A stretch of DNA of 41,959 bases, from positions 1-41,959 of the IMG/VR virus record IMGVR_UViG_2690316153_000014; one strand, written 5' to 3'. Positions 15,084 through 38,612 of the stretch are shown here, piece after piece. The DNA comes from a virus. Lineage: Duplodnaviria > Heunggongvirae > Uroviricota > Caudoviricetes. How positions within the stretch are numbered: position 1 is the stretch's first letter; each line of letters opens with the position of its first letter. The translations under genes were made by a program, and so were the position numbers. Below the pieces are notes generated by a model, which did no database searches, was not told the origin of the DNA, and saw only the letters and a list, made by a program, of their open reading frames with translations.

Positions 15084-15998
15084 TTATTCATAGATAAAAG
15101 TGACACCAATGACTGACTGGACGGTTCCGGCTGCAACCTTGTTTCCTGTTTGTCCATAGGTTGCGCTTAAACCCAGAGGTACTTTGCTTTTATTTACTGT
15201 CCCCAGGGAGACATTTTCTCCCGTAGCCAGTATTTTTCCATTACGCATCAGAGAGACACCCACTCCCGATGCTTTTGTTGCATCAGGTGCTGTGTTAGCA
15301 AACACTTGTCGGCTACTGTCAGTGGTGGCACCCGAAAGATAAAATGAGAGCTTTTGTTCGCTTGAGCAATATACGCCAAGGGGTATTTCTGCGCTTCCAG
15401 GAAAGTCCGGGAGATCCACAGTGACATTACGACTATCAACGGTGCAGCCGCCTGTTGGCATAACAACATTGTTATTTGAAATAATATTCCACGTAAAATT
15501 ACGCGGATTTCCGCTTCCTAATGTTGCAATTTTATACATATGAATACGAGCAATGACTTCCCCCGCTTTTATGACAACTCCACCGGCCGCCCCAACTGGG
15601 GTAATATAGAGTTTTAACGGTAATGGCATCGGTCTCTTATCACCAATATCCAATACGTTGGTATTTGTCGTCAACGGGAAGGGGTAGGTCACATTATTCC
15701 AGTACAGCGATCCTTTATATGACTGTAGGGAGCCTGCGAAAGCTGAGCCTTGTACCAGGTTTATATGATCAGTGTCGTACCAGCCGCCGTAATCATTCCA
15801 GCAACTTATATGCTGAGACAAGTCTACAACCAGATTCTGGCCCGGCTGTATTACAGGGTCGAGATTAACATAAACAGAGGTTGTACCTGCTCCAATACTT
15901 GACCCGCCATCGACATTACAACTGAAGGCAAAAACTTTGCCTGCCATTAATAGAAGATAAATACCGAACAGGACCTTTATACTGATTGTTTTACCCAT
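15084..15998 (-). CDS. ydeQ: FimH-like two-domain fimbrial tip adhesin (F9/Yde fimbriae)
   Basis: 304-aa ORF with signal peptide and a C-terminal pilin domain ending in a beta-strand motif; last gene of the fimbrial cluster. Confidence 0.8.
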
Positions 15999-16056
15999 GA
16001 TATATCCTAAGGTTAAAAATTGATTTAAAAAGAAGGCTAAGAAAATCGAATCGACG

Positions 16057-16560
16057 TTATTGCCAGGTGTAGATCACATTGATTAGCGCCTCGATCGTTC
16101 CCTGGCTTGCGTTTCCATTCACCGTGATAGCTCTTGCCTTAAGTGGAAACTGTGCATTACGAGTGATCTCATCAACAATAACCGTTTTGCTATCGCCATT
16201 TTTTAACGCAGCATCCTGGTCATCCCTCAGCTCTATCTGAATATTTTCGGCAGTACCTTCATTTTTGTAATAACCCGTATTGTCAGTTGAACCTGTCACG
16301 ATTGCCGTCACTGCACTTGTTTCAACCGGACAATCGGTTAATGACAAAGTAATATTGTGCCAGCCAGATGCAGAACCAGGTTGTTGCAGATTGCGCGTAT
16401 AAAGATCCCCGAGATTAACGTTAGCTTCTTTGGTTTGAATAGTGCAGGGTTTAGCGACTACCCGACCATTAACAGTGATAGTGACATCGGCGGCCTGGAG
16501 AGTTGCTGTGAATAACGCGCAAAACGTAGCTAACAGGAACCTCTTGTGAAGTCTTTTCAT
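16057..16560 (-). CDS. ydeR: FimG-like minor fimbrial subunit
   Basis: 167-aa secreted pilin-like ORF with signal peptide and Cys pair. Confidence 0.8.
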
Positions 16561-16572
16561 ATCTGACTCTGA

Positions 16573-17103
16573 TTATTGAAATTCAAGGGTAAAGGTTGCC
16601 GAAGCCCTCACCAGTCCCGGATTGACGGACTTCTGAGTTGACTTCAGACGAGCGGAGTAAGGCAAAATATTGTTCTGTTCTGGTACCAGTGGGATCCACT
16701 GCATCCCGGCATGAAGGTCATTCAGTTTCACCGGACGCATATTTGCGTCCAATATTTCTATACCCAAACCGGAGGCCGTATTGCTTCCTTCATCCAGTTT
16801 CAACAAAGTATTATTTTCTGCATCCTCAATACCGTTAAATGCAACCCGAACCCCCGTTGTCCCTTTGCTGCATTCACTTAACGTAATCTGAAAAGGGACG
16901 ACTGGACTTGTGCTACCGGTCGTTGGAAATTGTCTGGCACTGTTTTTTTGGAGATCTACGGTAAAATTAAGCGAATCCGATGAGACTGTGCAGCCATAAT
17001 CGAGGACGCGCCCGCTAATTTTAATAACGCTATCTGCGGATAAAGCAGAATAGGTGGTTAACCCCAGACATAAACCGAGGAAAATAATGTTATTGTATTT
17101 CAT
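16573..17103 (-). CDS. ydeS: FimF-like minor fimbrial subunit
   Basis: 176-aa secreted pilin-like ORF. Confidence 0.8.
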   Translation of the reverse strand: MKYNNIIFLGLCLGLTTYSALSADSVIKISGRVLDYGCTVSSDSLNFTVDLQKNSARQFPTTGSTSPVVPFQITLSECSKGTTGVRVAFNGIEDAENNTLLKLDEGSNTASGLGIEILDANMRPVKLNDLHAGMQWIPLVPEQNNILPYSARLKSTQKSVNPGLVRASATFTLEFQ

Positions 17104-17116
17104 AATCTATTGTTCC

Positions 17117-19768
17117 TTAGCGACAGATTGCTGTCTGCTGGTTCAGTAAGGTACCAGGAGAAACTTCAGGAAGCTTGTACTCGACAATACAGTTTGAGTT
17201 TTTATCTTTGCCCCATGAAACCTGTAATTTCCCTGACTGTGGAAGTCCAGTCAGATAAACCTGACCGTTTTCTGCGACAATGCTGCCATTTTTATTCTCT
17301 CCGTGTGTGACAATTGCACCGAATGGAACGCTCTTATTACCGTACTTCAACGTCATTAATACTTTCCCGCCGATTTGTGCATTAAATGTTGCTCTGGCAA
17401 TAGCACCGTGAGTTGGGATGACAGTGACCACGGTTTCATCCAGTTCAACATTATCTGCAAGGGAATTCGCGTTAAGAGCAACACGGTTTTCTCTATATTC
17501 TGTCGCAAATGGTAATATGGCATAGCCACGCCAGTCGGTATGAATTCCGGTCTGGTTCTCTATTTTGACATTATCAGCGCCAGGAGCCTTAACCAGAACC
17601 ATTGTGTCGCCCAGCGGCTGTCCAAAGGTGATGCCATCAGCATGAGCAATAATCCCACCACTCATTCCGTAATAAATCTGGCTGCTGTCACCATTCCGAC
17701 TGTAACCGACATTCGTATTACCGTAAGCTCCACGATAATTAAGAGAACTGTAACCACTGGTGCCAGACGATGTATTACCTCCGTGGGTGTTACCGACCTG
17801 AACGCTATAATTCAGGTTATTATCCGGCAGCAGAGTGCCATAAACCCCCGATAGATTGGTCATGCCGCCTTTCAAATCGTTTGACATACTGTAACTGGCG
17901 TTTGAATTACGAAATGCCGACTGACTGTCTGTACGCATCCAATGACTGAAGGGAACATTAAGCGTAAAAGCGAGTAAATGATCCCGATCGTTTTGCCATA
18001 TATTATTGGAATAGCTGTAATTCAGCGAAGTCGTAATATCACCAAACGGCACATTTAATCCAAATGATATTTGCTGGTCGCTGCGTGACGTGTTCCAGTA
18101 ACTTTGGCGACTGGCACTGAAAAATGTCGTACCGTAATTTCCAAGCTGCTGAGAGATGCTTATTTGTTCCTGACCACGCTTACTGTAGAATAGATTAAAA
18201 TAATCAATAAATTGTGTCTGCTCATTGGTGTCTCCGGTAGGAGGCTTGACGGTGTAACCACTCATTCGACTGTAGGCACTGTCGGATAAGTTATAAAAAC
18301 CTTGCGTAGAATAGCGATATCCTGCGACCTGGATATTGGTTCCTGTCTGGTAGAAGGATTTGCTGTAGACGGATTTAACCGATTGCCCGCTGTGACGGGT
18401 GCCATCTGCAAGTGTCGTATTGGCCTGCGTGATATCGAAAGAAAAGGCACCAAAAAGTCCTAAATCTTTACCAATACCAAGGTTGAAGGCCTGATAATCT
18501 TCTGCAATTTGCATTCCGCCATAAGGTGTCCAGTTTCCTTCCAGTCCATGCATCAAGCTACCTTGTATGAACTTGGGGGAGCTTTGCAGGTTATTTCCAC
18601 TACGATATTCCCCCATGGCAAGCGCATAACGCGTATATCCAGCACGTTGGAGAACCGGAACAGACGAATAAGGAACATATAATGTCTGAATACTGCCGTC
18701 TGCCTCTTTTATGGTTACTTGCAGATCACCACCATTGGCGGCAGAGTTGATATCATCAATAGTAAAAGGGCCGGGTGGAACAGTAGTCTGATAAACATCG
18801 TATCCGTTCTGTTTTACACTCACTTGTGCGGTGCCACGGGCAATACCATGAATCACCGGAGCGAAACCATGTTGGCTATCGGGCAACATCGCTTCTGTTG
18901 AATTTATTTTGAGGCCACGAAAGTTCACACTATCAAAAATATCGCCATCGGTATAACTATCACCTACCGTTAACCGTGAGCGTAAGGGAATAATGTCACG
19001 TTCAGCCGACGTATTGATATGCTGCCATTTATTGCTGTTAGATGAATTGCTACTCCCACTGTTATAACTCCACGTTGAGTTATCGCGCAGTCGCCAACTA
19101 CCAATGTTGATGCCACTCTGTAAATTCAAATATGCATAGTTGGATTTTCCTGCATTATGGTTACTACGATTATTAATGGAATTACCATTAAAACTATGAT
19201 TTAGAAGCCCAGCATTTATTCCTTCTTCCCACAGTTCAGGAGAAACATAGCCGCGAGCCATTCTGCCAACATAAATTTGCGGAACGGAGAGTGACAAATG
19301 TTGCTGACCAACATCAAACTCAGTTGATGCGTCGGCCAAACGATCCTGAAGTGGTGTGCATGCGCTGTTGTCCGGCACATGTTTTTCTGCAGAATGTTCC
19401 TTATTGTCTAATAACGCAGATTTTTTTATGCCAAGACTGACAAGAAGGTCTGTACTCAGACATGGGATGAGATCTGCGTTATTATCATCTGCAATAAAAG
19501 TAATATCCCGACTAGTCATAAATTCGTCGTTCAAATAAATGTCGACCCGATATGTACCAGGTGGTGCCTCGCGTCCCTTAGTAAAGGCGGATAAATCGAC
19601 AGATTCAGCAAGATCATTGCTTAAAAACCGTGGATTAAAATAATACTCTGCATCAACGGGAAAAACCGCAGTTGCTAAGCCAAGGGCAATGGTAAGCCGT
19701 GCAAAGCGTGGTAGTATTAACACCTGATGCATACGATATGCCTTAAATGCGGCACGAAAGGCTGTCAT
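17117..19768 (-). CDS. ydeT: fimbrial outer-membrane usher (FimD family), apparently full length
   Basis: 883-aa ORF of FimD-like size and composition; the real start may be the internal Met (MHQVLIL..., coordinate 19732) that precedes the signal peptide. Confidence 0.8.
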   Translation of the reverse strand: MTAFRAAFKAYRMHQVLILPRFARLTIALGLATAVFPVDAEYYFNPRFLSNDLAESVDLSAFTKGREAPPGTYRVDIYLNDEFMTSRDITFIADDNNADLIPCLSTDLLVSLGIKKSALLDNKEHSAEKHVPDNSACTPLQDRLADASTEFDVGQQHLSLSVPQIYVGRMARGYVSPELWEEGINAGLLNHSFNGNSINNRSNHNAGKSNYAYLNLQSGINIGSWRLRDNSTWSYNSGSSNSSNSNKWQHINTSAERDIIPLRSRLTVGDSYTDGDIFDSVNFRGLKINSTEAMLPDSQHGFAPVIHGIARGTAQVSVKQNGYDVYQTTVPPGPFTIDDINSAANGGDLQVTIKEADGSIQTLYVPYSSVPVLQRAGYTRYALAMGEYRSGNNLQSSPKFIQGSLMHGLEGNWTPYGGMQIAEDYQAFNLGIGKDLGLFGAFSFDITQANTTLADGTRHSGQSVKSVYSKSFYQTGTNIQVAGYRYSTQGFYNLSDSAYSRMSGYTVKPPTGDTNEQTQFIDYFNLFYSKRGQEQISISQQLGNYGTTFFSASRQSYWNTSRSDQQISFGLNVPFGDITTSLNYSYSNNIWQNDRDHLLAFTLNVPFSHWMRTDSQSAFRNSNASYSMSNDLKGGMTNLSGVYGTLLPDNNLNYSVQVGNTHGGNTSSGTSGYSSLNYRGAYGNTNVGYSRNGDSSQIYYGMSGGIIAHADGITFGQPLGDTMVLVKAPGADNVKIENQTGIHTDWRGYAILPFATEYRENRVALNANSLADNVELDETVVTVIPTHGAIARATFNAQIGGKVLMTLKYGNKSVPFGAIVTHGENKNGSIVAENGQVYLTGLPQSGKLQVSWGKDKNSNCIVEYKLPEVSPGTLLNQQTAICR

Positions 19769-19809: not shown

Positions 19810-20295
19810 TTACTGCATGGTTGCCTTAATACGCGGAGTTAATGCACCGTAATCATTGATCGTCTGAAAACTGATATCCCCGGTTGCAGCATGCGGGATA
19901 TCCACCGATACTTCACCTTTTGGCGGCACCATGGTGTTTGGGAGATTGCTATTTCCTGCTTTCATATTTGTTACGGTAATGAAGTAGGGCGTTGGATTAA
20001 TAAGAGTGAGTTTGCTACCGCTGCGACGAAACCGAAGCATTGCTGGCGCTTCTTCAGGTGCCATTGCCAGGTTCGTGGGGCGATAAAACATTTTTATGCG
20101 GCTAATAATTGCCAGCTGTAATGTATTCTCATTCTTCTGGTCTTTTTCCATAGCAGGAATAGCTTTAACATTCACCCAGAACAGGCTTTCACGGTCGCCT
20201 GGTAACTGATGATTAGTAGCGTTGATTATCCGCAGCGTATTCTCTTTTTTACCTTGCATGGAAAAAAGCGGTGGGGTAATGACAAACTGGGTGTC
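19810..20295 (-). pseudogene. periplasmic fimbrial chaperone (FimC family), 5'-truncated by IS3
   Basis: Frame is open from the IS3 boundary (reads [48 protein letters not shown]...). It matches only the C-terminal two thirds of FimC-type chaperones, with no start codon, signal peptide or N-terminal domain. Confidence 0.75.
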
Positions 20296-20351
20296 TGATC
20301 TTACCCAGCAATAGTGGACACGCGGCTAAGTGAGTAAACTCTCAGTCAGAG

Positions 20352-20660
20352 GTGACTCACATGACAAAAACAGTATCAACCAGTAAAAAACCCCGTAAAC
20401 AGCATTCGCCTGAATTTCGCAGTGAAGCCCTGAAGCTTGCTGAACGCATCGGTGTTACTGCCGCAGCCCGTGAACTCAGCCTGTATGAATCACAGCTCTA
20501 CAACTGGCGCAGTAAACAGCAAAATCAGCAGACGTCTTCTGAACGTGAACTGGAGATGTCTACCGAGATTGCACGTCTCAAACGCCAGCTGGCAGAACGG
20601 GATGAAGAGCTGGCTATCCTCCAAAAGGCCGCGACATACTTCGCGAAGCGCCTGAAATGA
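20352..20660 (+). CDS. insE: IS3 OrfA (InsE-type HTH transposase subunit)
   Basis: 99-aa [34 protein letters not shown]... with HTH and leucine-zipper-like C-terminus. Confidence 0.9.
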
Positions 20661-21523
20661 AGTATGTCTTTATTGAAAAACATCAGGCTGAGTTCAGCAT
20701 CAAAGCAATGTGCCGCGTGCTCCGGGTGGCCCGCAGCGGCTGGTATACGTGGTGTCAGCGGCGGACAAGGATAAGCACGCGTCAGCAGTTCCGCCAACAC
20801 TGCGACAGCGTTGTCCTCGCGGCTTTTACCCGGTCAAAACAGCGTTACGGTGCCCCACGCCTGACGGATGAACTGCGTGCTCAGGGTTACCCCTTTAACG
20901 TAAAAACCGTGGCGGCAAGCCTGCGCCGTCAGGGACTGAGGGCAAAGGCCTCCCGGAAGTTCAGCCCGGTCAGCTACCGCGCACACGGCCTGCCTGTGTC
21001 AGAAAATCTGTTGGAGCAGGATTTTTACGCCAGTGGCCCGAACCAGAAGTGGGCAGGAGACATCACGTACTTACGTACAGATGAAGGCTGGCTGTATCTG
21101 GCAGTGGTCATTGACCTGTGGTCACGTGCCGTTATTGGCTGGTCAATGTCGCCACGCATGACGGCGCAACTGGCCTGCGATGCCCTGCAGATGGCGCTGT
21201 GGCGGCGTAAGAGGCCCCGGAACGTTATCGTTCACACGGACCGTGGAGGCCAGTACTGTTCAGCAGATTATCAGGCGCAACTGAAGCGGCATAATCTGCG
21301 TGGAAGTATGAGCGCAAAAGGTTGCTGCTACGATAATGCCTGCGTGGAAAGCTTCTTTCATTCGCTGAAAGTGGAATGTATCCATGGAGAACACTTTATC
21401 AGCCGGGAAATAATGCGGGCAACGGTGTTTAATTATATCGAATGTGATTACAATCGGTGGCGGCGGCACAGTTGGTGTGGCGGCCTCAGTCCGGAACAAT
21501 TTGAAAACAAGAACCTCGCTTAG
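20657..21523 (+). CDS. insF: IS3 OrfB (InsF-type DDE transposase catalytic subunit); start overlaps the orfA stop (ATGA)
   Basis: 288-aa ORF with an RNase-H-fold DDE integrase core; the overlap with orfA fits the usual IS3 -1 frameshift fusion arrangement. Confidence 0.9.
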
Positions 21524-21674
21524 GCCTGTGTCCATATTACGTGGGTAGGATCACGCAGGGGTCGGCCCATTTGAGCTTCAGATAGGAACGTTTGAATTCC
21601 TTTCACAAAATACATCACATACTGAACGTGAACATTCCCACTTTGATCTTAAGGCCAAAAAGTATGCAGGACTA

Positions 21675-23393
21675 ATGATTTTTAGGGATAGCTTGAGAGT
21701 ATTACCTTATGGTCGAGTAGATAATGATTTCTTCCAGATAGAAGAAAGACGTTCATGGAATGCTGGGCGATATTATTGGTCTAATAGAAGGATTTTTGGT
21801 TATATTGGAATTACTCAATCCAGTAATAAAGAGCTGAAAGATAAGTCGGGGAGAGAGGGATTCATAAGAAACCAGGCTGCAAGAGAACTGAAAACTATTA
21901 TATCTAATTTGTTAACTGAACTTGCTGATAGATTTTTTGGTTCACGTTCTGATGACCGTAAAGAGCTTTTAGAACAAGTTAAGCGTGAAAAAGAGTTAAG
22001 AAAATCTGCTCAACAACAAGCTCGAAAATCAACACAAAAAAGTTTTTCAGAAGCTTTGAAGAATCAGACACCAGTTCTTGATGCTTCCTTGGAGGCTGTT
22101 AAAAGGCTGAAAACTAAGCTTGATAAAACTGATGGTTCGTTAGATTTAAACTATCTTAAAATTATAGACAGTGATCTTACAAACTTAGATGCGTTGCGCA
22201 GTGAAATTAAAACGCCTATCAAACCTCCAAAACTTGGAATGTATGAAGAGAAATATAGAGACTACAGAGATAAATTTAATGAGTTCTCTGCGTATATTCT
22301 ACAAATGAAGTTAGCAATTAATAAACTTGATTCTGAATTAAATAAACTTGAGCCTTCATTGTCAGCGAAAAATCACCTTGAAAAAAATCAAGGTATTATT
22401 AATTCTAAACTAACTAAGTTTAATAACACGATAGAGGAGAAGATACATTCTCTTTTAAAAAAATGGGCCGATGAAATAAAGGTTGATCGAAGTGATTATT
22501 ATGCTAAAACTATATCAGTTGTTGATTCAATAGATAATGATTCACAAATTGAAAATGTGTTTAATTTGCTCGATAGTTTATATGTTGAGTCAGTTGATAC
22601 CCTAACTTTCAAATATCAATCAATAATAAAAGGTCTCGATAGATTATTTGAAGGTATAAACTTAGATTCAGCATTCTCATTATCTGAAGAAGAACGCTCA
22701 TATTTTGAAGAAAAAGCTAAAAGTTTAAACGCGCTTGCACAGTTAGGTATTAGTGTTGAGATAATATCTCATGAACTTGAAGAAATGGATTCTATGGTAA
22801 CCAGAGGACTAAACTCTCTTCCTACTTCTGTAAAAGAACACCCTGGTTTTTCATTGGCGTTAAATGCTCACAGATCGCTTACTCAACAAATACGTTTCTT
22901 ATCACCTTTGAAAATATCAGGTTATCAATCCAGGCAGAGAATAACTGGAAAAAATATCATGGATTATGTCCTGAAGTTCTTTGGGGAGCGTTTCGAACGG
23001 CAACGAATAACTATTGAATTTAGTGAAGAGTTTAAGCAAATCGCAATAACAGATATACCATCAAGGATCTATCCTGTTTTTACTAATATTATCAACAATG
23101 CAATGTATTGGGTCAGTCTGTCAAATAATAGGCTCATAAAGATTGGTTTTGTGAATTCTTTGGTTATCATAGCAAATTCTGGTCCGGCAATTGATACCGA
23201 TGATATCCCGCGACTATTTGAACTATTTTATAGCAAAAGAGCAAATGGACATGGGGTAGGTCTGTATCTATGTCGAGAAAACCTTGCTGTTGCACATCAT
23301 AAAATATGGTATTCAGAACCTGATGAAGGCGATAACTATTTAATAAAAGATGGCGCTAATTTTGTGATCCAGTTCAATGGAGTGGAGTTCTAA
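21675..23393 (+). CDS. cytoplasmic histidine-kinase-like protein (coiled-coil N-terminal region, H-box-like ISHELEEM, C-terminal HATPase_c/GHKL domain); possibly 5'-truncated by IS3
   Basis: C-terminus carries N box (VFTNIINNAMYWV), G1 (IIANSGPAIDTDD), F (LFELFYSKR) and G2 (GHGVGLYLC) motifs. No transmembrane segment. The frame stays open upstream of the ATG back into the IS3 right end (stop at 21546-21548). AT-rich codon usage. Confidence 0.6.
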   Translation: MIFRDSLRVLPYGRVDNDFFQIEERRSWNAGRYYWSNRRIFGYIGITQSSNKELKDKSGREGFIRNQAARELKTIISNLLTELADRFFGSRSDDRKELLEQVKREKELRKSAQQQARKSTQKSFSEALKNQTPVLDASLEAVKRLKTKLDKTDGSLDLNYLKIIDSDLTNLDALRSEIKTPIKPPKLGMYEEKYRDYRDKFNEFSAYILQMKLAINKLDSELNKLEPSLSAKNHLEKNQGIINSKLTKFNNTIEEKIHSLLKKWADEIKVDRSDYYAKTISVVDSIDNDSQIENVFNLLDSLYVESVDTLTFKYQSIIKGLDRLFEGINLDSAFSLSEEERSYFEEKAKSLNALAQLGISVEIISHELEEMDSMVTRGLNSLPTSVKEHPGFSLALNAHRSLTQQIRFLSPLKISGYQSRQRITGKNIMDYVLKFFGERFERQRITIEFSEEFKQIAITDIPSRIYPVFTNIINNAMYWVSLSNNRLIKIGFVNSLVIIANSGPAIDTDDIPRLFELFYSKRANGHGVGLYLCRENLAVAHHKIWYSEPDEGDNYLIKDGANFVIQFNGVEF

Positions 23394-23394
23394 T

Positions 23395-25143
23395 ATGACA
23401 GTGGCAAATTATAATTCTCTTGTCCAGAAAACTTTCTGCGAAAATGCAATTCGTTCCGTTGTCATGATTGATGACGATTTTCTGACGTATTCTGAATCAA
23501 TCAGGGCGTTGAATAACGAAGTTGATTTAGACTACAACAAAATTGACTCATCTAAACGAGCCGCTACTCTTGAGAGCTTTTTTCAATCTAAAAATATGAT
23601 TTGTGATGTTGACAATGGTTCTGTTAATTTCGATGTGGATCGGATTAGAAAATCAGATCTTATTATTGTAGATTATCATCTTGATAATAATGCACCTGAT
23701 AAAACACTTAAACTATTACAAGATTTGAAAGACTCCGATCATTTAAATATGATTGTAATATATACTAGAGAGAATTTAGAAACGGTTTGGATGCAGATAT
23801 CATCGACTCTCAAAGGTGCTCTGGATATCAACAGCTTGATCATTGACTACGATAATGAAGATGTCCAAAGTTATTGGGAAGACGTTGTATTACCGAACTT
23901 AAATGATAATGGTAATAAAGCTCTCACAAGAGATGAAACAATAGCCTATATTAAAGACAGTAAGCCTTGTAGAAGAATTAAAAGATTAATACATGATGAT
24001 GCTGTGTTGGAGGATCAAAAGGATAAAAACTTCATTGCAAAAATGATTGCAGAATATGCTGTGTCTAGAAATGCAATTATTTCTAGCAACACATCTGGCA
24101 ATGTCATTCGGGGTGATGAAAGCGGAGTAAAATGGATTCAATGTGGTAATATCTTTGTCTCCCTATTTCATAAGGTTCAAGATGATCATGAAAACGATGG
24201 AGATAGGATTTGGCAAACTCTCAATGATTCTCTCATTGAATGGAAACCATCTTATTATCAGTTAATAAAATCTGAAATTCAGAATGCAATCGAAGCTGAG
24301 GCTTTATCTTTTGTAAATCATTTGGCTAACGATCATTACGGTCAAGCTGCGTGGTTAAATGAGATATTAAAATCAGACTCGCCTGATATTAGATGTAGAA
24401 ATATTGACTTTGTATTTGGTAATTTATCAGAAGAGCTTTATCAAAGACTTAAAAATAATAATACGCTGGATGAATTTATCAAAAGTGTTTTTGATAGCTA
24501 TTCAAATGAATACGCTAACAGCGGAGTTGCTGCATTGCTCCAATATTGCTCTTCAAAAATGGATCTGCCATCAAATAATGATACTTATCACGAAATGTAT
24601 CATGCTTTAAATATGAATTTGTCTTCAAAGAATTTTGAAGATGGTCATATTTCTACTGGCACTATTTTCTTTGATACAGAGTCGAACAAATGGTATTTAT
24701 GTGTATCTGCGGCATGTGATTTGGTTCCTACTCAGGGTAACGACCCTCACCATGTAAGATTAAGTCCGCACAGGCTCATTAAAGTTCTGGAGCTTTTTAA
24801 CGCCAGTCAGAGTAAAGCATTGCCATTTGCTGAACATTCGAAATATATATATGTAATGCATAAAAATCAAAGAAAATATCTCTCTATTTTCGAAGGGGAT
24901 AAAACGCTTCCTGTTGTTGATTATATGGTGGTGTTGAATCATGGAACAACAGTTGATGGCGAAGAAAAAAATATTATTTCTGCCGTGTTTTTAAGTAATA
25001 TGGATGGCAACGTGCAAAATGTTCCTGTCCGACTCAAACTTAAATCTCAACTGAGAACTGGTTATGCAGAAAGATATCAGGCTATAGCGTCTCAGTATAG
25101 CTCAAGGATTGGTGTGGATTATGTATCAATGATGCTACCATAA
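23395..25143 (+). CDS. response-regulator-like protein: N-terminal receiver (REC) domain plus a roughly 440-aa C-terminal domain of unknown function
   Basis: REC hallmarks: acidic cluster VVMIDDDF, candidate phospho-acceptor Asp in LIIVDYHLD, conserved Thr in MIVIYTRE. GGAG Shine-Dalgarno 7 nt upstream; the ATG lies 2 nt after the kinase stop (an alternative in-frame ATG is at 23377). I recognise no DNA-binding or enzymatic motif in the C-terminal domain. Confidence 0.6.
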   Translation: MTVANYNSLVQKTFCENAIRSVVMIDDDFLTYSESIRALNNEVDLDYNKIDSSKRAATLESFFQSKNMICDVDNGSVNFDVDRIRKSDLIIVDYHLDNNAPDKTLKLLQDLKDSDHLNMIVIYTRENLETVWMQISSTLKGALDINSLIIDYDNEDVQSYWEDVVLPNLNDNGNKALTRDETIAYIKDSKPCRRIKRLIHDDAVLEDQKDKNFIAKMIAEYAVSRNAIISSNTSGNVIRGDESGVKWIQCGNIFVSLFHKVQDDHENDGDRIWQTLNDSLIEWKPSYYQLIKSEIQNAIEAEALSFVNHLANDHYGQAAWLNEILKSDSPDIRCRNIDFVFGNLSEELYQRLKNNNTLDEFIKSVFDSYSNEYANSGVAALLQYCSSKMDLPSNNDTYHEMYHALNMNLSSKNFEDGHISTGTIFFDTESNKWYLCVSAACDLVPTQGNDPHHVRLSPHRLIKVLELFNASQSKALPFAEHSKYIYVMHKNQRKYLSIFEGDKTLPVVDYMVVLNHGTTVDGEEKNIISAVFLSNMDGNVQNVPVRLKLKSQLRTGYAERYQAIASQYSSRIGVDYVSMMLP

Positions 25144-25215: not shown

Positions 25216-25632
25216 TTATTTTTGTTTAAGTCTTCTAAGCTTCATGCATTCTAATGAGAATAATAATAGAGTTGTGCTGTATATAAAGCCAGAGTTAGTT
25301 AATAACTTTAAATTTAATGCTTCAGGATTTTCACTGAGAAAGTGAAAGGCATAAACTAAGTATACAGCTAAAGTAGCCGTTCCAATTGTTGGTCCAATAT
25401 CGCCTTGATCATGAGGTTCAAGGTTTACATTGAACTTGAAGATTAGCCATTCAAATCCCCAAGTAAAAAAAACAACTAATATCATGGCTGCGAATAATTT
25501 CGCGATGTTATCTGCTGATGGATTCATCAGAACAGATTGTTTCTGAAAAAATTCACAAAGTGAGAGTCCGAAAAAAATAAAAAAAAGTGGTCTGGAACTA
25601 AATTTTTCAAAAACTTTGAATAGGGTTTCCAT
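25216..25632 (-). CDS. small integral membrane protein (about 4 predicted TM helices), unknown function
   Basis: 138-aa ORF with four hydrophobic stretches; AT-rich; sits between the REC-protein gene and the integrase. Confidence 0.45.
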   Translation of the reverse strand: METLFKVFEKFSSRPLFFIFFGLSLCEFFQKQSVLMNPSADNIAKLFAAMILVVFFTWGFEWLIFKFNVNLEPHDQGDIGPTIGTATLAVYLVYAFHFLSENPEALNLKLLTNSGFIYSTTLLLFSLECMKLRRLKQK

Positions 25633-25670
25633 TTTCTTTACCTTCAGGATTATATTAGCTATTCTGATAC

Positions 25671-26900
25671 TTAGGCTACCAGAGCATTTGATCTTTGAGC
25701 TTGAACGTAATCACTCCACCATTGCATCAAACTCTGTCGCTCTATCAGATATTCTGCACGATTGTATGCTGCGATAATTTCATCTTTTTTCGAGTGGGCA
25801 AGCGCTGCCTCAAGAACTTCAGCTCTGAATTTACCAGACTCCTCTGCCGCTGTTCGTGCAATAGAACGCATACCGTGAGCTACAAGCTCGCCTCCGAACC
25901 CCATTCGGATGATAGCTGCGTTGGCTGTTTGTTCATGCATATGATTAAGAGGCGCTTTTATGCTGGGGAAAACCCATTCTCTATGCCCACTTATTGATTT
26001 CATTAATTCAAGGATGCGCAAAGCTTCTTTACTCAAAGGAACTTTGTGAAGCTTTTTCATTTTCATGAAATCAGCAGGAATGTTCCAAATGCTGTTGGTT
26101 GTATCAATATCAGACCACCTTGCGCGAACGGCTTCACCCGGACGAACCCATGTCAACAATTGCCATTCAATTAGCATACGTGTTTCCAACCGGATTGACG
26201 CATTCGTCAAAGATTCCATAAACCTTGGCAATTCGCTTGGGGGAAGGGCAGGCATATTTTGCTTTTTTGGTTTACTGAATCTTTGACCAAGGTTGTCAGC
26301 CGGGTTGAACTCAATAAGTTCTTCAGTAGCTGCCCACCGGAAGATTTCATTCAGACGTGAAATGATACGGCGTAGAGTTTCCAATACGCCTCGTTGCTCA
26401 ATAGGATCAAGGTGTTGTTTTAAGAGCTTAGGTCGGATCTCATTGATAGGGACATTACCCAGACCGGGAAAGACATTTCTCTCTAAGCTGCGCCAGATGT
26501 CTGCTGCATGGTCTTGTGAGATACCTGATGTCTTTACCTTCTCATCTAACCATTTCCGCGCTACGGCTTGGAGAGTGTGCTCAGTAGCACTCTTTAATGC
26601 CTTCGCCTTATCGTTGTTATGGATTTGGGGATCAACACCATTTGCCAGAAAGGAGAGATATTCATCACGTAAGGCTCTGGCTCTTGCAAGGGTAAGGTGA
26701 GGATATGTCCCAAGGCTCATTTTGGTTCTTTTCTTGCTCACTGGTACTGTATACCTGAAATACCAATTTTTCTTGCCTCCTTTCGCCAAAGGAGCGATTC
26801 GTAGAATCAGACCATCACCGTCAAACAAGTTGATTTCTTTATCGGCTGGCTTGGTGCTTTTGATTTCAGTGTCAGTGAGCTTCTTAGCGATTTTTGCCAT
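25671..26900 (-). CDS. P4-type (CP4-57 IntA-like) tyrosine integrase
   Basis: N-terminal arm-binding region MAKIAKKLTDTEIKSTKPADKEINLFDGDGL...WYFRY and C-terminal catalytic region with HxxR and terminal Tyr. Start set at the Met with a GAGG Shine-Dalgarno (track ORF begins 14 codons earlier at 26942). Confidence 0.8.
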   Translation of the reverse strand: MAKIAKKLTDTEIKSTKPADKEINLFDGDGLILRIAPLAKGGKKNWYFRYTVPVSKKRTKMSLGTYPHLTLARARALRDEYLSFLANGVDPQIHNNDKAKALKSATEHTLQAVARKWLDEKVKTSGISQDHAADIWRSLERNVFPGLGNVPINEIRPKLLKQHLDPIEQRGVLETLRRIISRLNEIFRWAATEELIEFNPADNLGQRFSKPKKQNMPALPPSELPRFMESLTNASIRLETRMLIEWQLLTWVRPGEAVRARWSDIDTTNSIWNIPADFMKMKKLHKVPLSKEALRILELMKSISGHREWVFPSIKAPLNHMHEQTANAAIIRMGFGGELVAHGMRSIARTAAEESGKFRAEVLEAALAHSKKDEIIAAYNRAEYLIERQSLMQWWSDYVQAQRSNALVA

Positions 26901-27065: not shown

Positions 27066-27100
27066 TGGTGGAGCTGGCGGGAGTTGAACCCGTATCCGAA
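27066..27100 (-). repeat. attachment-site-like repeat resembling the 3' end of ssrA (tmRNA), not a complete RNA gene
   Basis: Reverse complement reads TTCGGATACGGGTTCAACTCCCGCCAGCTCCACCA (T-arm, acceptor 3' strand, CCA), close to the E. coli ssrA 3' end as I remember it. Upstream sequence has no tag-coding or 5' acceptor region. Lies 166 bp upstream of the P4-type integrase start. Confidence 0.6.
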
Positions 27101-27358
27101 AAATTCTTAACCAATTGAATATTAATGATTTTTCTAATTTAAAATACCTCACGTGCATTTTACGTGCATATTGTAGTACCTCTAACGTCCTGATTCTGTC
27201 CAACATTTTGAAGTGTTTAGGCGCCACTGGGGCGGTGATTAGCGCTGTTTTGTGCTGTTCATAGCACTTCAAGACTATTCAATTCAGAGCAATCGTTGAA
27301 GAATTACCCGTAAGGTAATATCATACTATTTAGGTAACTGCGGTTATCACCATCAAGG

Positions 27359-27394
27359 GCCACTGATGACGCTGTTATCATCAGTGGCTTTTTG
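27359..27394 (+). terminator. strong plus-strand intrinsic terminator (perfect 11-bp stem) upstream of the two-gene cassette
   Basis: GCCACTGATGA (27359-27369), 8-nt loop, TCATCAGTGGC (27378-27388), then TTTTT. No U-run on the opposite strand. Confidence 0.55.
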
Positions 27395-27435
27395 TACCTT
27401 CACTGCACAGCCAGTGAAGTGTTGAGGAGACTAGC

Positions 27436-27777
27436 ATGAGAACAGTAGCGAGAAGATCGATACAGACGATTGAGCGTCGGACTCAACTCGTCAGTTCTTT
27501 TGTTGACTCAAACACAGCAAACGAGTTCTTCGTGAGAAGACTGAGTGATCGTGTCTCCCCGGCACGTCAGCTGTTTATTGTGACATTGAACAATGAGGTT
27601 CGTGACGGTGACGTGATCCCGTTCGCTGAGATCGCCATGAACAAAGAAAAATTGCGCTATGTTGTGAAGCCAGCAGATCAGTATCCTCAGTATGTAAGCA
27701 GTAATCTGCTGAAGAAAATTGAAGCGGCAATTGCTCTATACATGCAGAAGAACTACAGGGAAATTAACTACCATTAA
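27436..27777 (+). CDS. hypothetical protein (113 aa), first gene of a two-gene cassette
   Basis: ORF preceded by GAGGAG Shine-Dalgarno (27424-27429); 11-bp gap to the next gene; I recognise no motif. Confidence 0.5.
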   Translation: MRTVARRSIQTIERRTQLVSSFVDSNTANEFFVRRLSDRVSPARQLFIVTLNNEVRDGDVIPFAEIAMNKEKLRYVVKPADQYPQYVSSNLLKKIEAAIALYMQKNYREINYH

Positions 27778-27788
27778 AAGGTTGCTGA

Positions 27789-28556
27789 ATGGCTCCTGCG
27801 TTAATACCTTCATATAACAAGGACTTGAACATTACGCCATTTGGCGAAAAACGTCTTATTGAGTCATTCTATTTTTTCACTGCCGAGGCTGGCTTACTGA
27901 GGGCTGATGAGTACATTGTCAGTTCTGGTGAGTTTCAGTACTACTTGGATGTGTATCAACTGGGATGTTCCACCGACGACTTTTTTTTAGACTATGGCAG
28001 TGACCTTCTTGATTCGAAGGTTCCAATGCAGGATCTGGTCAATACCCTCTTGGGTCTTGATATGGTAGACGATAACAAAACGATAAGAATAGGTCGTATA
28101 CAGTTCAACGACTTTAATTTTATCGAAGAGAACGGTCAGATGATGACCGGAAAGCAAGTGAAAAGCGCTGTTATCGCACAGGATTTCCAATCAGCAGGTT
28201 TGGCGCGTGAGATCTATAAAATGCTTGCGCGAAAGCATGAGTTTCTCATCTGCGATAACATTCAAAGTATTGCCGGTGGTGCTCTTTGGGCTAGTAGCAT
28301 CATTCGAATTGCCGAGGTACGGATCTACAATTCACGCACGAAGAAATTTATGGACATACTTGGTCCAGGTGCGCGTGGCGTTTCAGGTACTTTGCCATGG
28401 AGTGCGAATGATCTGTCTGTAGATGAGATTGTTCGCTGGGGTCGTGCGTATGATGATGAAAACTGTTGTCGTCACATTGTACATGTTATCTGTAAGGACC
28501 GACTCATTGACGATCAATTTCATGATTATGTTTCGATAGGTGGCGCGACAGAATAA
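27789..28556 (+). CDS. hypothetical protein (255 aa), second gene of the cassette
   Basis: Coding-like composition, tightly linked to the upstream ORF, followed by a terminator; no recognised domain. Confidence 0.5.
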   Translation: MAPALIPSYNKDLNITPFGEKRLIESFYFFTAEAGLLRADEYIVSSGEFQYYLDVYQLGCSTDDFFLDYGSDLLDSKVPMQDLVNTLLGLDMVDDNKTIRIGRIQFNDFNFIEENGQMMTGKQVKSAVIAQDFQSAGLAREIYKMLARKHEFLICDNIQSIAGGALWASSIIRIAEVRIYNSRTKKFMDILGPGARGVSGTLPWSANDLSVDEIVRWGRAYDDENCCRHIVHVICKDRLIDDQFHDYVSIGGATE

Positions 28557-28561
28557 CCATC

Positions 28562-28590
28562 AAAAAGACCCGGCATTTGCCGGGTTTTTT
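28562..28590. terminator. bidirectional intrinsic terminator between the cassette and the prophage integrase
   Basis: A-run, stem ACCCGGC/GCCGGGT (28568-28574 with 28579-28585), loop ATTT, T-run; works on both strands. Confidence 0.65.
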
Positions 28591-28597
28591 CTTCAAA

Positions 28598-29776
28598 TCA
28601 CTTCTTCATTCCAGATTCCATTGCGGTTTTCCCGTCGTATTCAGCCAGGTATTTACCGTAATTGCGGAACAGCATTTCCGGCCCCTTATGCCCCATCTGC
28701 CCGGCAAGCCAGAAAAGGTTTACACCCTGGCTAATGTGTCTGGTGGCGAATGTGTGGCGCGTCTGGTACGGGTTACGGTAGCGCACACCAGCTTTTTTCA
28801 GGGTCGGCACCCATGCTTTTTTACGGATAGCGTCGGCGTTCGTCCAGGGATCTCCCGTTTTCGGATCGCTGAATATGAACTCACTTTTCATAAAGGTGTA
28901 TTGCTTCTGCGCCTGCAGGGCCGCCAGCGCCTCACTGTTCAGCTCCACCTTACGGGTACCGGCTTTTGTCTTGGTGCCTTTAAGTACCCCTACGACACTG
29001 GCCGCCTGTATGTGCGCTGTATTACCTATAAAGTCGATATCGGTCCAACGTAATGCGCATAGCTCAGAGCTGCGTAGCCCTGTATTGAAGGCGAAGCGGA
29101 ACAGATTCTGCCATTCCTGATACTTGCAGTGCTGATATATGGCACTGGTTTCCGCAGGCGCAAACGGATCAACTTCGTAATCGTCGGCGTTCGGTTTACT
29201 GTCGACCACGTGATACCGGCTGGCGCTGACAAGAGTTACCGGGTTAATAGTCAACAGGCCATCAGTTACAGCCTCATCAATGGCGCTGCGCAGAAATGAC
29301 AGGTTATTCCTGATTGTTTTCAGCTTAGTTTTTCGGCTGGCTATCCAATTTTTTAGTACCGCAGGCGTCAATTCTGTTACATGTAGTTTATGTAGTTCTG
29401 ATAGTGCTGATAGACATTTTTCGTAACCGCCAATGGTTGACGGCGACAGATTGCGGTTCATGCAAATTTTCAGGTATTCATCAAGATAGGACTTAATATT
29501 TTTGGTTTTCTTTACTACACCGAATAACTCCAGTTTTTTGGAACTGGGGAAATATTTCGCATATTCAAACGTTCCGCTGGCGATCTGATTTTGTATCTCC
29601 CCTAGCAGGCGCTCAGCATATTTAATACCACGTGTATTTGCCTCAAGCCGAGACAGGGGCTCCCTGCAAAGAACCCCTTTATATGTGAAAGTGATAACTA
29701 GTGTTGAAGCAGTTTTATGCTTACGAATAGTTACTCCTCTTGGCAGAGATAATAATCCTTGTTCTTTCTTGCCCAT
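28598..29776 (-). CDS. lambdoid prophage tyrosine integrase
   Basis: 392-aa ORF with catalytic-domain residues (R in LRSSELCALRW, HTFATRH, terminal Tyr region); an excisionase-like ORF overlaps its start, as in lambda int-xis. Confidence 0.8.
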   Translation of the reverse strand: MGKKEQGLLSLPRGVTIRKHKTASTLVITFTYKGVLCREPLSRLEANTRGIKYAERLLGEIQNQIASGTFEYAKYFPSSKKLELFGVVKKTKNIKSYLDEYLKICMNRNLSPSTIGGYEKCLSALSELHKLHVTELTPAVLKNWIASRKTKLKTIRNNLSFLRSAIDEAVTDGLLTINPVTLVSASRYHVVDSKPNADDYEVDPFAPAETSAIYQHCKYQEWQNLFRFAFNTGLRSSELCALRWTDIDFIGNTAHIQAASVVGVLKGTKTKAGTRKVELNSEALAALQAQKQYTFMKSEFIFSDPKTGDPWTNADAIRKKAWVPTLKKAGVRYRNPYQTRHTFATRHISQGVNLFWLAGQMGHKGPEMLFRNYGKYLAEYDGKTAMESGMKK

Positions 29777-29940
29777 TTTGAAACCTCTATTAAGTCGACC
29801 CAGCGTTCTTTAACTCCGTCGACTTTTAATACATGAACCCCTTCTTTCCATATTCCTCTTTGTATCCGTTTGTTAACGGCATCAACCGTTTCTCCCGCGT
29901 CGCGGCAGTAGGTTGATATAGGCACGCAATCCAGCCCCAT
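29731..29940 (-). CDS. putative excisionase (Xis-like)
   Basis: 69-aa ORF overlapping the integrase start by 46 nt; small basic winged-helix-like composition; called from position only. Confidence 0.45.
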   Translation of the reverse strand: MGLDCVPISTYCRDAGETVDAVNKRIQRGIWKEGVHVLKVDGVKERWVDLIEVSKWARKNKDYYLCQEE

Positions 29941-30098
29941 ACATCACCTCACATAACACTCAGCCCACGGCAGTGGCACCACACGTCAAACATTCGCTTC
30001 ACAACTTCACGACAGTAGAAGCCGTCAACATCTCGCGTCAGGTCATAGCGATTGCCGTAACGCTGGTGGACCCATTGTTCAAATGCTTTATTCATTCT

Positions 30099-30377
30099 TT
30101 ACTTCCTTTTTATGGCTCGTAATTTTTTCAGGTGCTTTTCCTGCTCAGTGTCCGCGAGAATTTTGCGGTACTCCTGGTGGTCAATATGTTCGAACAGGCA
30201 GTTTAACTCACCAATGCGTACCCGCCCGGATCGTCCGTCCATCCGTCGAAAGAACACTGAGTGCTCAGTGATGCGAGTAATCACCACGGGGTATCCGGCT
30301 CTGTCCGTGTATATCTGACCGCGTTGAATCAAAGCGAACATGTGGTTATCCCCATCGACAAATTGAGAACACAACAA
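30099..30377 (-). CDS. hypothetical prophage early protein
   Basis: Minus-strand ORF in the early-left gene string; no recognised motif; start uncertain. Confidence 0.35.
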   Translation of the reverse strand: MLCSQFVDGDNHMFALIQRGQIYTDRAGYPVVITRITEHSVFFRRMDGRSGRVRIGELNCLFEHIDHQEYRKILADTEQEKHLKKLRAIKRK

Positions 30378-30464
30378 ACGCTACTGCGAATACCACCCCC
30401 AGAGTTACGATTGCATCAGGCCAGCTCATTGATTCACCTCCTGCGGCGTCCTGGTATTCGATTT

Positions 30465-31033
30465 TCATTCCGGATGCTCCTGAGCCACATTGAAATCGCC
30501 ATGATCACGACAAGGCATCACAACAAATTCAGGATTGCCATACATTGAGTTGATGATGGAATCAAACTGAATTCTGACCGCTTGCCCGTCACCGGAGGAA
30601 CGTAACTGGACGGGAATAAATTTACGCTCACGACCAAACATCTTCTCTGGATAACTCAGGTAACCCGCCTGGATCACCGGGTGTGTACAGAGGTCAAATT
30701 TTTTCGGAATGATGCGTTCCAAATCCGGAAAACAACCGTCCACCAATTTAATGCCGGTAATGGACAGCCGGCGCTGAAACTGGTCGCGATGAACAGGATC
30801 GGCTCTTTACTAAAAATCAGCTCTGTCGTTTCGGCTTTGGCCGGGACGCCACCTTCGAACTGGACAATGATGTTTTTCTTCGTCCGGATGCCGTGAGTCA
30901 TGCGCAGTGCTACGAAACCATTGGTTGCCTCAATATGTTTTGGCGTGATGTGAAGACCGTTCAGGTAATAACGAACGTCGTTTTTAGCAGCGCACACCAG
31001 AGCGGCGCGAATAAGTTTTGACTGGATGATCAT
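30465..31033 (-). pseudogene. beta-sliding-clamp (DnaN)-like gene covering clamp domains II-III, split by a frameshift (track ORFs 30674..31033 and 30465..30746)
   Basis: Upstream ORF contains DVRYYLNG and ATNG (DnaN has HQDVRYYLNG and ATDGHRLAV). Downstream ORF, in another frame and open upstream to 30806, contains KLVDGCFPDLERIIPK and EFVVMPCRD (DnaN has KLVDGRFPDYRRVLPK and C-terminal AYVVMPMRL). The two frames overlap by about 70 nt. Confidence 0.5.
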
Positions 31034-31779
31034 GCTTTATCCTCCCATCCGATTACCTGAAAAAGCCCCATCTTCGGGTGATACCAGCGTGTGCCGCGTG
31101 GTTCAGCCTCTGACATCATTTGGTGGAACGCCGCCATAAATGTCTCAAGCTCGACGACAGCCCTGCGAGACAACAGACCGTCCGGAGTCATAAATTCGTG
31201 CGTGTCGGTAGGGATGTGGTAGGCGTTGACCAGATTCCGACACTTGGCGTCACTCATTCCGCTTTTGGCTACCACCTGGCGGTAACCGACATATCCGGTG
31301 CGCATTGTGCCGCGTTTGATGTTCTCCACAGCTTTGGTGACCGTTTCGATCTTCTCTTCAACATGACTCAGGCGCTTCTGCTGGCGAACGGCATCGGCGG
31401 CCATTGCAGCGATCATCTCCATTTCCGTCAGCGGCGCGTGAGTTCGGAAATAGCTGTTAACCAGTTCGCGCTGAACCTGCCATGCAAGAGCATCGTTAAA
31501 AGGCTTCGTCAACATCAGGTAACCAGACTCGAAAAGAATGATCCCTTTGGCAGTTCGCGCGGCAAAGGCATCAGAAAGTGACTCCGTACGTATTACGTCC
31601 GCAGTCATTTCAAGAAAATCCACCCCTTCGATAAAGTGAGAACGGTTGCGGTTAAACGCAGCACGGGCGGTACCTTCCGGGCGCTGGTGGACGTCATCAA
31701 TTATTGCAAATGTCACAACACGCTGACCGCGATATTCGATTACCGGAAACTGTTTGTTGTTGATGGTTACAATATTCAT
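31030..31779 (-). CDS. phage antirepressor-like protein (ORF6N/AntA-type N-terminal domain)
   Basis: ORF starting MNIVTINNKQFPVIEYRGQRVVTFAIIDDVHQRPEGTARAAFNRNRSHFIEGVDF... with GGAG Shine-Dalgarno; domain call from motif resemblance only. Confidence 0.4.
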   Translation of the reverse strand: MNIVTINNKQFPVIEYRGQRVVTFAIIDDVHQRPEGTARAAFNRNRSHFIEGVDFLEMTADVIRTESLSDAFAARTAKGIILFESGYLMLTKPFNDALAWQVQRELVNSYFRTHAPLTEMEMIAAMAADAVRQQKRLSHVEEKIETVTKAVENIKRGTMRTGYVGYRQVVAKSGMSDAKCRNLVNAYHIPTDTHEFMTPDGLLSRRAVVELETFMAAFHQMMSEAEPRGTRWYHPKMGLFQVIGWEDKA

Positions 31780-31822
31780 TTTTATCTCCAGACAGCCCGG
31801 CGTGTAATACCGGGCATATGTA

Positions 31823-32650
31823 TTACTTAACCTGAATAAATGGTGTGTTGGCACCGCTGGTCATGTATTGCGGCAGTGTACCGTTCCACTTGTTGATGGC
31901 TTCCAGCTCCATAACACCGGGGTTCTGGCGCAGAGCTTCACCGCGTAAACGAATAGCATCGGCTTCGGCCTGGGCTTTTGTGCGAATCGCATCTGCCTGT
32001 CCGGCAGCTTCCGCGCGCAACATGTTGGCTTCCGCTTCGCGCTGTTTTACTTCCTGCTCGCGTTGCAGGGTTTTCTGGTTCGCCGTGACTTTGGCATTAA
32101 TGCTGTCGATAACAGTAGGTGGGTACTCCGGCTTACCCACATATGAGAGGCTCATTACCTGAATACCGATGGGCGTCATTTCTTCCTGAATGTCTTTAAG
32201 AGCTGCATCCAGCAGCTCAGACTTGCCGCCGTCGATAAATTTGTCGGTGGTCATTTTGCTGGCCAGTCGGTTGAGTGCGTCGGCTATCTTCTGGCGCAGG
32301 TCGGTGTCGGTAATGTCGTCCACGCCTTTGCGGTAGGTCTGAAAGACTGTGGTAACTTTGGATGGATCAACTTTGTAGGCCACGCCGATGTGATAGCCGA
32401 TGGTTGTACCGTCACTCATCTGGAAACTGAATGGATCATCGTAGGTCTTCATCTGCTTAAAGGTCGGGAAGATGTAAACCTCAGTGTTCCATCCCGTCCA
32501 GTAGCGCCCAACACCGACCACTTCACCGACGCCTTTATCGTCGCCCAGTTTGTTTACTTTGATGCCCACATTACCAGGCTCAACGCGATCGCAACCGACA
32601 AGGCCAATGGTCGGCAGAACAAGGGCTAAAGCAAAAAGTAATTTTTTCAT
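31823..32650 (-). CDS. SPFH/band-7 family lipoprotein
   Basis: Lipoprotein signal peptide with lipobox (LVGC), then a prohibitin-like region and an Ala/Glu/Gln-rich coiled-coil tail. Confidence 0.55.
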   Translation of the reverse strand: MKKLLFALALVLPTIGLVGCDRVEPGNVGIKVNKLGDDKGVGEVVGVGRYWTGWNTEVYIFPTFKQMKTYDDPFSFQMSDGTTIGYHIGVAYKVDPSKVTTVFQTYRKGVDDITDTDLRQKIADALNRLASKMTTDKFIDGGKSELLDAALKDIQEEMTPIGIQVMSLSYVGKPEYPPTVIDSINAKVTANQKTLQREQEVKQREAEANMLRAEAAGQADAIRTKAQAEADAIRLRGEALRQNPGVMELEAINKWNGTLPQYMTSGANTPFIQVK

Positions 32651-32835
32651 CTTTTATCCTTAGAAAAAGAAAGACCCTTATAAATGGCATAAATGCAGGG
32701 CGGGGTCAGACACGCCAGAGCAAAGCCAGAAATCACTGCTACCGTATCCTTCATTGATATGAGGGCCGGAACGATTAATCCGTAAATACATGTGATAATT
32801 GCCAGTGATATAACTATTCTGAAATAAATGTTCAT
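32647..32835 (-). CDS. small two-helix membrane protein, translationally coupled to the SPFH gene
   Basis: 62-aa hydrophobic ORF whose stop overlaps the SPFH start (ATGA). Confidence 0.4.
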   Translation of the reverse strand: MNIYFRIVISLAIITCIYGLIVPALISMKDTVAVISGFALACLTPPCIYAIYKGLSFSKDKR

Positions 32836-32895
32836 GGTCCTCCTGATGTATTCGGCTTGCCTTATTTAATTGCGTCATGGTTAATTTCGTTTACG

Positions 32896-34049: not shown

Positions 34050-34233
34050 TTGTTATTTCCCGTATGCTTTCCTGAGAAACAGTATTGCAACTGACCAGTA
34101 TCCTGCATTAGCCATTAATAATGCGGTTTTATAAGCACTTCTGTTTTTCATGCATCACCACCATTTTCAGGTTGTGGAAATTCCCGACCAGAGACCGTTA
34201 TGTTTTTATGGGTGATTGTTTATTGAGTTTTCT

Positions 34234-35150: not shown

Positions 35151-35168
35151 GGGTTAAATGATTTTTGC

Positions 35169-38611: not shown

Positions 38612-38612
38612 G

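Follow-up and report, generated by a model that had tools for sequence, protein, structure and literature searches.

Mismatched flanks of an IS3 element in an Escherichia coli draft contig: probable joining of two IS3 copies through a collapsed repeat

Gene content on the two sides of IS3

The window, that is, the whole stretch of 41,959 nucleotides that was analysed, is a complete short-read draft contig, CYED01000038.1 of assembly GCA_001284965.2, bounded by repeats at both ends. A single copy of IS3 is present in the window, with a fimbrial locus of the core chromosome on its left, and the remnant of a genomic island followed by part of a prophage on its right. The main features, in order along the window, are listed below.

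1 to 307, minus strand: 5' part of gadB, the left contig end lying inside the gadA/gadB repeat (the translation runs off position 1)
15084 to 19768, minus strand: ydeQ, ydeR and ydeS of the F9 (yde) fimbriae and an intact usher of 883 aa (open reading frames with 100% identity to annotated KSC1031)
19810 to 20295, minus strand: F9 periplasmic chaperone gene, 3' part comprising the last ~161 codons, cut by IS3 (partial PapD_N and PapD_C domains)
20293 to 20295, no strand assigned: GTC, 3-bp target duplication of IS3 in the chaperone gene, left copy (the second GTC is on contig CYDK01000066.1)
20296 to 21553, plus strand: complete IS3, 1258 bp (no mismatch to the copies carried by L001, L004 and L005)
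20361 to 21523, plus strand: IS3 transposase, the overlapping frames orfA (20361-20660) and orfB (20657-21523), with a programmed -1 frameshift
21554 to 21556, no strand assigned: CGC, the right flank, native ATPase-gene sequence (AA-CGC-AGG) common to 483 of 483 closed genomes with this junction
21555 to 23393, plus strand: 5'-truncated gene of a histidine-kinase-like ATPase, codons 377-988 of 988 (HEF_HK and HATPase_c domains)
23395 to 25143, plus strand: Response_reg_2 protein of 582 aa, the partner of the ATPase (Pfam PF19192; the same gene pair occurs in the intact islands L048-L050)
25216 to 26900, minus strand: gene for a hypothetical protein of 138 aa and a P4-type integrase of 409 aa (Arm-DNA-bind_3, Phage_int_M and Phage_integrase domains)
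27066 to 27101, minus strand: 3' end of ssrA, 36 nt, an attachment-site copy between island and prophage (where homology to the L001 ssrA locus and homology to the L003 prophage end overlap)
27102 to 41959, no strand assigned: left portion of a lambdoid prophage (99.9% identical to that of E110019; integrase at 28598-29776)

Across the left flank, positions 1 to 20295, the window shows 100% identity to the gadB-pqqL-yddAB-ydeMNOP-ydeQRS-usher-chaperone region found in many genomes of phylogroup B1 type. Of these genes, ydeQ and ydeS belong to F9 fimbriae (PMC4850163). The uncut chaperone of KSC1031 is a protein of 236 aa, encoded at positions 5588-6298 of L002, and the uninterrupted sequence at the insertion point reads ...GGTGTC/TTTTTGG...; in the window, the gene is cut after codon 75-76, corresponding to a break after L002 position 6073, as expected from the original prediction of a truncated fimbrial chaperone. 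Beyond the chaperone gene, the order in KSC1031 is fimA, dif, hipBA. The dif site follows the IS3 insertion point at a distance of 2.0 kb and lies between fimA and hipA (L002 8070-8097, equivalent to KSC1031 850,069-850,096), so that any rearrangement at the window IS3 would move or flank dif.

Elements of the IS3 family have a hot spot in the 5' part of the F9 chaperone gene. In two other sequencing runs, a 1.3-kb IS629-type element (ends TGAACCGCCCCGG...) is found in either orientation exactly at the same GTC (ends of L038 and L039). The gene carries frameshifts in many unrelated genomes, and for this reason a chaperone product of 149 aa with an internal start (window 19810-20259) is called in 202 blocks of the protein collection; a look-up of this fragment proved not diagnostic, the same product arising from merely frameshifted genes in many genomes. 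The F9 chaperone gene thus seems prone to frequent decay.

IS3 itself is canonical. Its ends are TGATC...GATCA, with 5'-TG...CA-3' termini; TGATCTTACCC opens and GGGTAGGATCA closes the element. The terminal inverted repeats are imperfect (TGATCTTACCC... versus TGATCCTACCC..., with 28 of the first 40 positions matching when checked by hand), and a seeded inverted-repeat search over the window missed the IS3 ends because the mismatches are too many for the seed. The fused orfA-orfB product matches the Pfam families HTH_Tnp_1, HTH_21 and rve (DDE transposase), and RefSeq labels an identical copy 'IS3-like element IS3 family transposase, programmed frameshift'. Annotated IS3 copies 100% identical to that of the window are carried by three closed E. 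coli genomes.

As originally predicted, IS3 is flanked by GTC on the left and CGC on the right, and no matching 3-bp repeat adjoins it within the window. This mismatch is meaningful because IS3 insertions in the same chaperone gene of EC931 and EC71, 170 and 211 bp from the window site (L004 9371 and L005 9412), are bordered by perfect 3-bp duplications, ATA/ATA and GTA/GTA, respectively, which bears out the premise that IS3 normally duplicates 3 bp of its target.

On the right, the native DNA of the ATPase gene at the junction reads AAT CCT AAC GCA GGA, so the CGC flank is ordinary gene sequence. The ATPase frame is open from the IS3 edge, and its translation aligns with residues 377-988 of the 988-aa protein P0003 with 607 of 612 identities (99%). 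The suspected truncation of the kinase-like gene is therefore real, with 376 N-terminal codons lost, despite the RefSeq annotation of an 'intact' protein of 572 aa; the annotated frame begins at 21675 (WP_000577254.1, without a pseudogene mark). Homologues of the 988-aa ATPase are found in Salmonella, Klebsiella and Serratia.

In these three genera, the intact counterpart of window positions 21555-25143 (L048-L050, 7833-13717) consists of genes for a C5 DNA methylase, the 988-aa ATPase with two ATPase domains and the Response_reg_2 protein, and rides on a mobilisable island that encodes a relaxase and the same integrase. The methylase-ATPase-Response_reg_2 module looks like a conflict or defence module; a PADLOC scan of the ATPase and Response_reg_2 pair gave no significant match. 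The C5 DNA methylase and mobilisation genes, which precede the ATPase gene in the intact islands, are all lost in E. coli.

The predicted assignment of the right flank to an ssrA-type island is borne out by the location of the integrase in relatives. In L001, the island integrase is 166 bp from ssrA, and in many genomes the block of truncated ATPase gene, Response_reg_2 gene, 138-aa frame and integrase is directly followed by ssrA and smpB. In the window, the island is followed instead by a lambdoid prophage, which stands between it and ssrA. No tmRNA (ssrA) gene was detected within the window with ARAGORN or Rfam, so the ssrA origin of the island is drawn from these relatives and from the 36-nt remnant.

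Elements are stacked in tandem at ssrA, the 36-nt ssrA copy dividing the integrase of the old island from the lambdoid prophage. Between the attachment site and the prophage integrase (27436-28556), there are two open reading frames of 113 and 255 aa without a Pfam domain, which accompany this prophage end in thousands of contigs; a look-up of the 255-aa protein returned only relatives with the canonical arrangement. In other genomes, the same prophage end abuts very different sequences, among them P4-like elements (with HamA and a helicase), an EcoRII system and Mu-like tail genes. In the late region of the prophage, just upstream of nanS-p, a full-length match to the sRNA family STnc100 was found (108 bits, 41380-41552). 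The right contig end (41690-41959, from translation of the window end) is formed by the 5' part of nanS-p, which recurs among lambdoid prophages. At the opposite end, gadB has a near-identical paralogue, gadA. With its ends in the gadB and nanS-p repeats, the contig terminates as short-read contigs typically do.

Age and distribution of the two junctions

The right junction, IS3 followed by CGC and the truncated ATPase gene, is present at the edge of the ssrA island in 483 of 5426 closed E. coli genomes. In 478 of the 483, the other side of this resident IS3 is a truncated alpha-amylase pseudogene, ygaQ', next to glaH; at most five lack ygaQ' on the left, which bounds the base rate of real rearrangements at the resident copy at about 1%. 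Like the window IS3, the resident copy lacks a target duplication, with TTC or TCT on the left versus CGC on the right. The right junction is therefore old and long predates this strain; being fixed in the 483 closed genomes, it is no part of a recent event.

Whereas the end point of ygaQ' varies among alleles, that of the truncated ATPase gene never does; the actual rearrangement history of the right flank is thus IS3-associated deletion on the left of the resident copy. One IS3-bearing allele, ygaQ'...GTTATCT/IS3, occurs in E2865 and others; another, ygaQ'...CCCATTC/IS3, is 19 bp shorter. Fusions of ygaQ' to the truncated ATPase gene without IS3 are found in 72 closed genomes, including O111:H- 11128, and comprise at least three alleles. 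Among these, slippage between two GAT triplets, with loss of IS3, explains ...GAGAT-CA-CGCAGG; a further one reads ...GAGATG-CG-CGCAGG. Alleles of this fusion point are located at about 12003 in L001, 1607 in L051, 3767 in L025, 6006 in L027 and 6018 in L028. A hypothetical IS3-bearing allele with a CGC duplication was also sought and was not found; the GTTATCT allele turned up instead.

The distribution of the left junction is very different. Neither the junction of the chaperone 3' fragment with IS3 nor the predicted reciprocal junction, in which IS3 is followed by GTC and the chaperone 5' part, was detected in any of the 5426 closed genomes, and exact-pattern searches for both gave no match in species-representative genomes or JGI metagenomes.

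Three rare protein variants encoded in the window, those of YdeQ, the usher and the integrase, were found in only three to four contigs among 15 billion proteins. In the Logan assembly of run ERR178186, a contig of 20,190 bp breaks off 28 nt inside the left end of IS3 and matches the window without a difference over the 15,240 nt retrieved; the left junction is real at the read level. On the other side, a contig of GCA_025274305.1 begins one base into the right flank, at window position 21555. The link across IS3 thus has a short-read draft contig as its only source. A literature search on the run and assembly accessions found no paper.

The missing half of the chaperone gene could be traced through its product. 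Interruption by IS3 predicts a protein of 76 aa, consisting of chaperone residues 1-75, an aspartate (GAC) and a TGA stop codon supplied by the IS3 end. This exact product is present in the protein database, under accessions that share the ENA prefixes CTW and CTX with the rare proteins of the window. The corresponding contig of a sister assembly, CYDK01000066.1 ('2 samples with this contig' reported), carries the autotransporter-hipBA-fimA-chaperone-5' region, reads ...GGGTAGGATCA/GTC/TTTTTGG... and ends 91 nt inside IS3. Since the 5' half of the chaperone gene is found here directly behind IS3 and GTC, a normal insertion of IS3 with duplication of GTC took place in the chaperone gene, and the two copies of the duplication are split between contigs. 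Matching 3-bp repeats, named at the outset as an observation that would speak against a rearrangement, accordingly exist, but the second GTC is on another contig of a sister assembly, and whether both flank one physical IS3 copy is beyond short-read resolution.

As implied by the search output ('2 samples' and one similar place), the joined window contig is carried by two draft assemblies. The two appear to represent the same clone and are assumed to come from the same pipeline.

Origin of the join across IS3

In KSC1031, the yde locus is on the plus strand at 0.848 Mb, and the resident IS3 and the island are on the minus strand at 2.051-2.052 Mb. The two IS3 copies would have been in inverted orientation before any event (in the KSC1031 frame, with the new copy on the plus strand in the yde frame). 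Because the two regions are on opposite strands, a physical join between them would be an inversion of about 1.203 Mb (25.6% of the chromosome), not a deletion, and one end of this inversion would fall 2.0 kb from dif.

We consider it most probable, at roughly two chances in three, that the window joins two separate IS3 copies that were wrongly connected through a collapsed repeat. Under this scenario, copy 1 would be the old one at the outer edge of the small ssrA island, where IS3-associated deletions have truncated both the ygaQ alpha-amylase pseudogene and the 988-aa ATPase gene; it would supply the right junction of the window, IS3 followed by CGC. Copy 2 would be recent, a copy-out/paste-in insertion into the F9 chaperone gene that duplicated GTC, supplying the left junction of the window, GTC followed by IS3; its own right junction, IS3-GTC-chaperone 5', would be the one on the other contig, in the sister assembly of the same clone. 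The assembler or scaffolder would then have threaded a single collapsed IS3 between non-cognate flanks. The resulting strain would have a plain insertion inactivating the F9 chaperone, along with the usual arrangement of ygaQ', IS3 and island, and no chromosome rearrangement.

The argument is one of junctions. Denoting the chaperone 3' part A, the chaperone 5' part B, ygaQ' C and the truncated ATPase gene D, three junctions were seen in the clone, namely, A with the left end of IS3, and the right end of IS3 with B and with D; the fourth, C with the left end of IS3, we infer from relatives. Simple insertion (pairing A-B and C-D) and inversion (pairing A-D and C-B) yield the same four, so that inserts shorter than 1.26 kb cannot discriminate between the two arrangements. 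Short reads can neither span nor phase an identical repeat of 1258 bp, and the flanks were therefore most likely joined wrongly; that the link across IS3 is in error is what we infer from this. Unless a long-insert library was used, the A-D join of the contig would be uninformative, and the prior for an inversion would decide. This prior is low because at most about 1% of the closed genomes with the resident copy have a non-canonical left neighbour and because the replichore imbalance would be costly.

Two observations speak against a misjoin. First, a purely random error is not expected twice, yet two draft assemblies share the join; a deterministic pipeline would be expected to repeat the same join under either model. 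Second, the two IS3 copies are inverted, so the observed join is the exact product of homologous recombination between them.

The strongest alternative is a real inversion in two steps, which we regard as unlikely and less likely than the misjoin. IS3 would have inserted into the chaperone gene with duplication of GTC, and homologous recombination with the resident copy would then have flipped about 1.2 Mb, yielding chaperone'-GTC/IS3/CGC-island, as in the window, and ygaQ'/IS3/GTC-chaperone 5' elsewhere. The inverted segment would carry along dif and the fimA-hipBA region, and a quarter of the chromosome would change replichore with its polarity kept. Such an event accounts for the inversion-type strand arrangement in KSC1031, predicts the split GTC duplication that is seen, and agrees with the presence of the joined contig in two draft assemblies. 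Large rearrangements in E. coli, moreover, most often stem from recombination between IS copies: about 70% of those in the long-term evolution experiment arose in this manner, and some of the lines became substantially asymmetric (PMC4173774). However, all other assemblies break at IS3; the chaperone-5' contig stops inside IS3 and is not joined to ygaQ'; neither of the predicted junctions occurs in the 5426 closed genomes; and the canonical left neighbour of the resident copy is missing in at most five of the 483 closed genomes that carry this copy. Replichore imbalance of up to about 10% is reported to be harmless and greater imbalance to be costly (PMC4173774), and selection should act against replichores of about 1.15 and 3.55 Mb, which exceed that level by far.

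The same end product, fitting the same junction data, could come from a single step, in which the resident IS3 attacked the chaperone gene by intramolecular transposition, in one replicative event that inverted the segment, added a second IS3 and left one GTC at each of the new junctions. IS3-family elements, however, transpose by copy-out/paste-in via a circular intermediate, a route that is not known to give replicative inversions; the insertions in the same gene of EC931 and EC71 are simple ones with normal duplications, and the other assemblies stop at the IS3 edges, as noted for the two-step event. We consider this route very improbable. Still less credible is the removal of everything between chaperone and island by adjacent deletion or by deletion between direct IS3 copies, one of the mechanisms originally put forward: mismatched flanks next to two truncated genes are its classic signature, and it fits the older history of the resident copy (the ygaQ'-ATPase' fusions and variable ygaQ' ends), but for the left join it is refuted by geometry, since regions 1.2 Mb apart on opposite strands in relatives cannot be brought into the joined orientation by deletion and the interval is core chromosome, and by the content of CYDK01000066.1, which carries the 'deleted' 5' half of the chaperone gene together with fimA, hipBA and the autotransporter.

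What stands of the original interpretation is that both neighbouring genes are truncated, that the right flank is part of an ssrA-type island and that the flanks derive from two different IS3 copies. Its central claim, a rearrangement junction, agrees with the inversion-type geometry but is the less likely option, the link being confined to a short-read draft contig and other assemblies breaking at IS3.

Several more general points follow. An IS with mismatched flanks in a short-read draft contig is no evidence of rearrangement, because all four junctions of read length are the same with or without one. The widely annotated E. coli 'ATP-binding protein' of 572 aa is a truncated remnant of the 988-aa gene product, and IS3-family elements have hit the F9 chaperone gene repeatedly. 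Should the join be real after all, which we doubt, the strain would be a natural EPEC-like, phylogroup B1-type isolate with a 1.2-Mb IS3-IS3 inversion ending 2 kb from dif; gene orientation and polarity relative to replication would be preserved, but the replichores (about 1.15 versus 3.55 Mb) would be unbalanced to an extreme degree that is rare in nature. Insertion of IS3, IS-associated deletion and recombination between IS copies are all textbook processes; however the link is resolved, none of the components is new to biology.

Comparison with known systems

The window element is the same as IS3 of Escherichia coli (IS3 family, IS3 group) in size, sequence, ends, open reading frames and frameshift, and its 3-bp duplication also matches once the window contig and CYDK01000066.1 are taken together; the sole difference is the mismatched pair of flanks in the window contig, not the element.

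The right flank resembles the ssrA (tmRNA) hot spot, the position of CP4-57 in K-12, in having a P4-type integrase by the ssrA 3' end. As at hot spots with tandem elements, an attachment-site copy and a lambdoid prophage are found between ssrA and the older island. The window differs from the CP4-57 position in that the ssrA gene is outside and the island is a decayed remnant cut at IS3.

The flank pattern, with halves of different duplications on the two sides of one element, is also that of IS insertion followed by recombination between IS copies, as in the rbs deletions by IS150 and the inversions mediated by IS elements in the long-term evolution experiment (PMC4173774). Those cases were proven by optical maps or PCR (PMC4173774), whereas here recombination would be known from the contig join alone, and, compared with the inversions of that experiment, the window segment would be strongly asymmetric relative to oriC and dif.

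A further parallel is the chimeric contig that arises through a collapsed multicopy repeat. The window contig is likewise bounded by repeats with one complete IS inside, another contig, in the sister assembly, ends 91 nt inside the same IS, and other assemblers break at both of its edges; it differs from a typical chimera in that the same join seems to be present in two sister assemblies.
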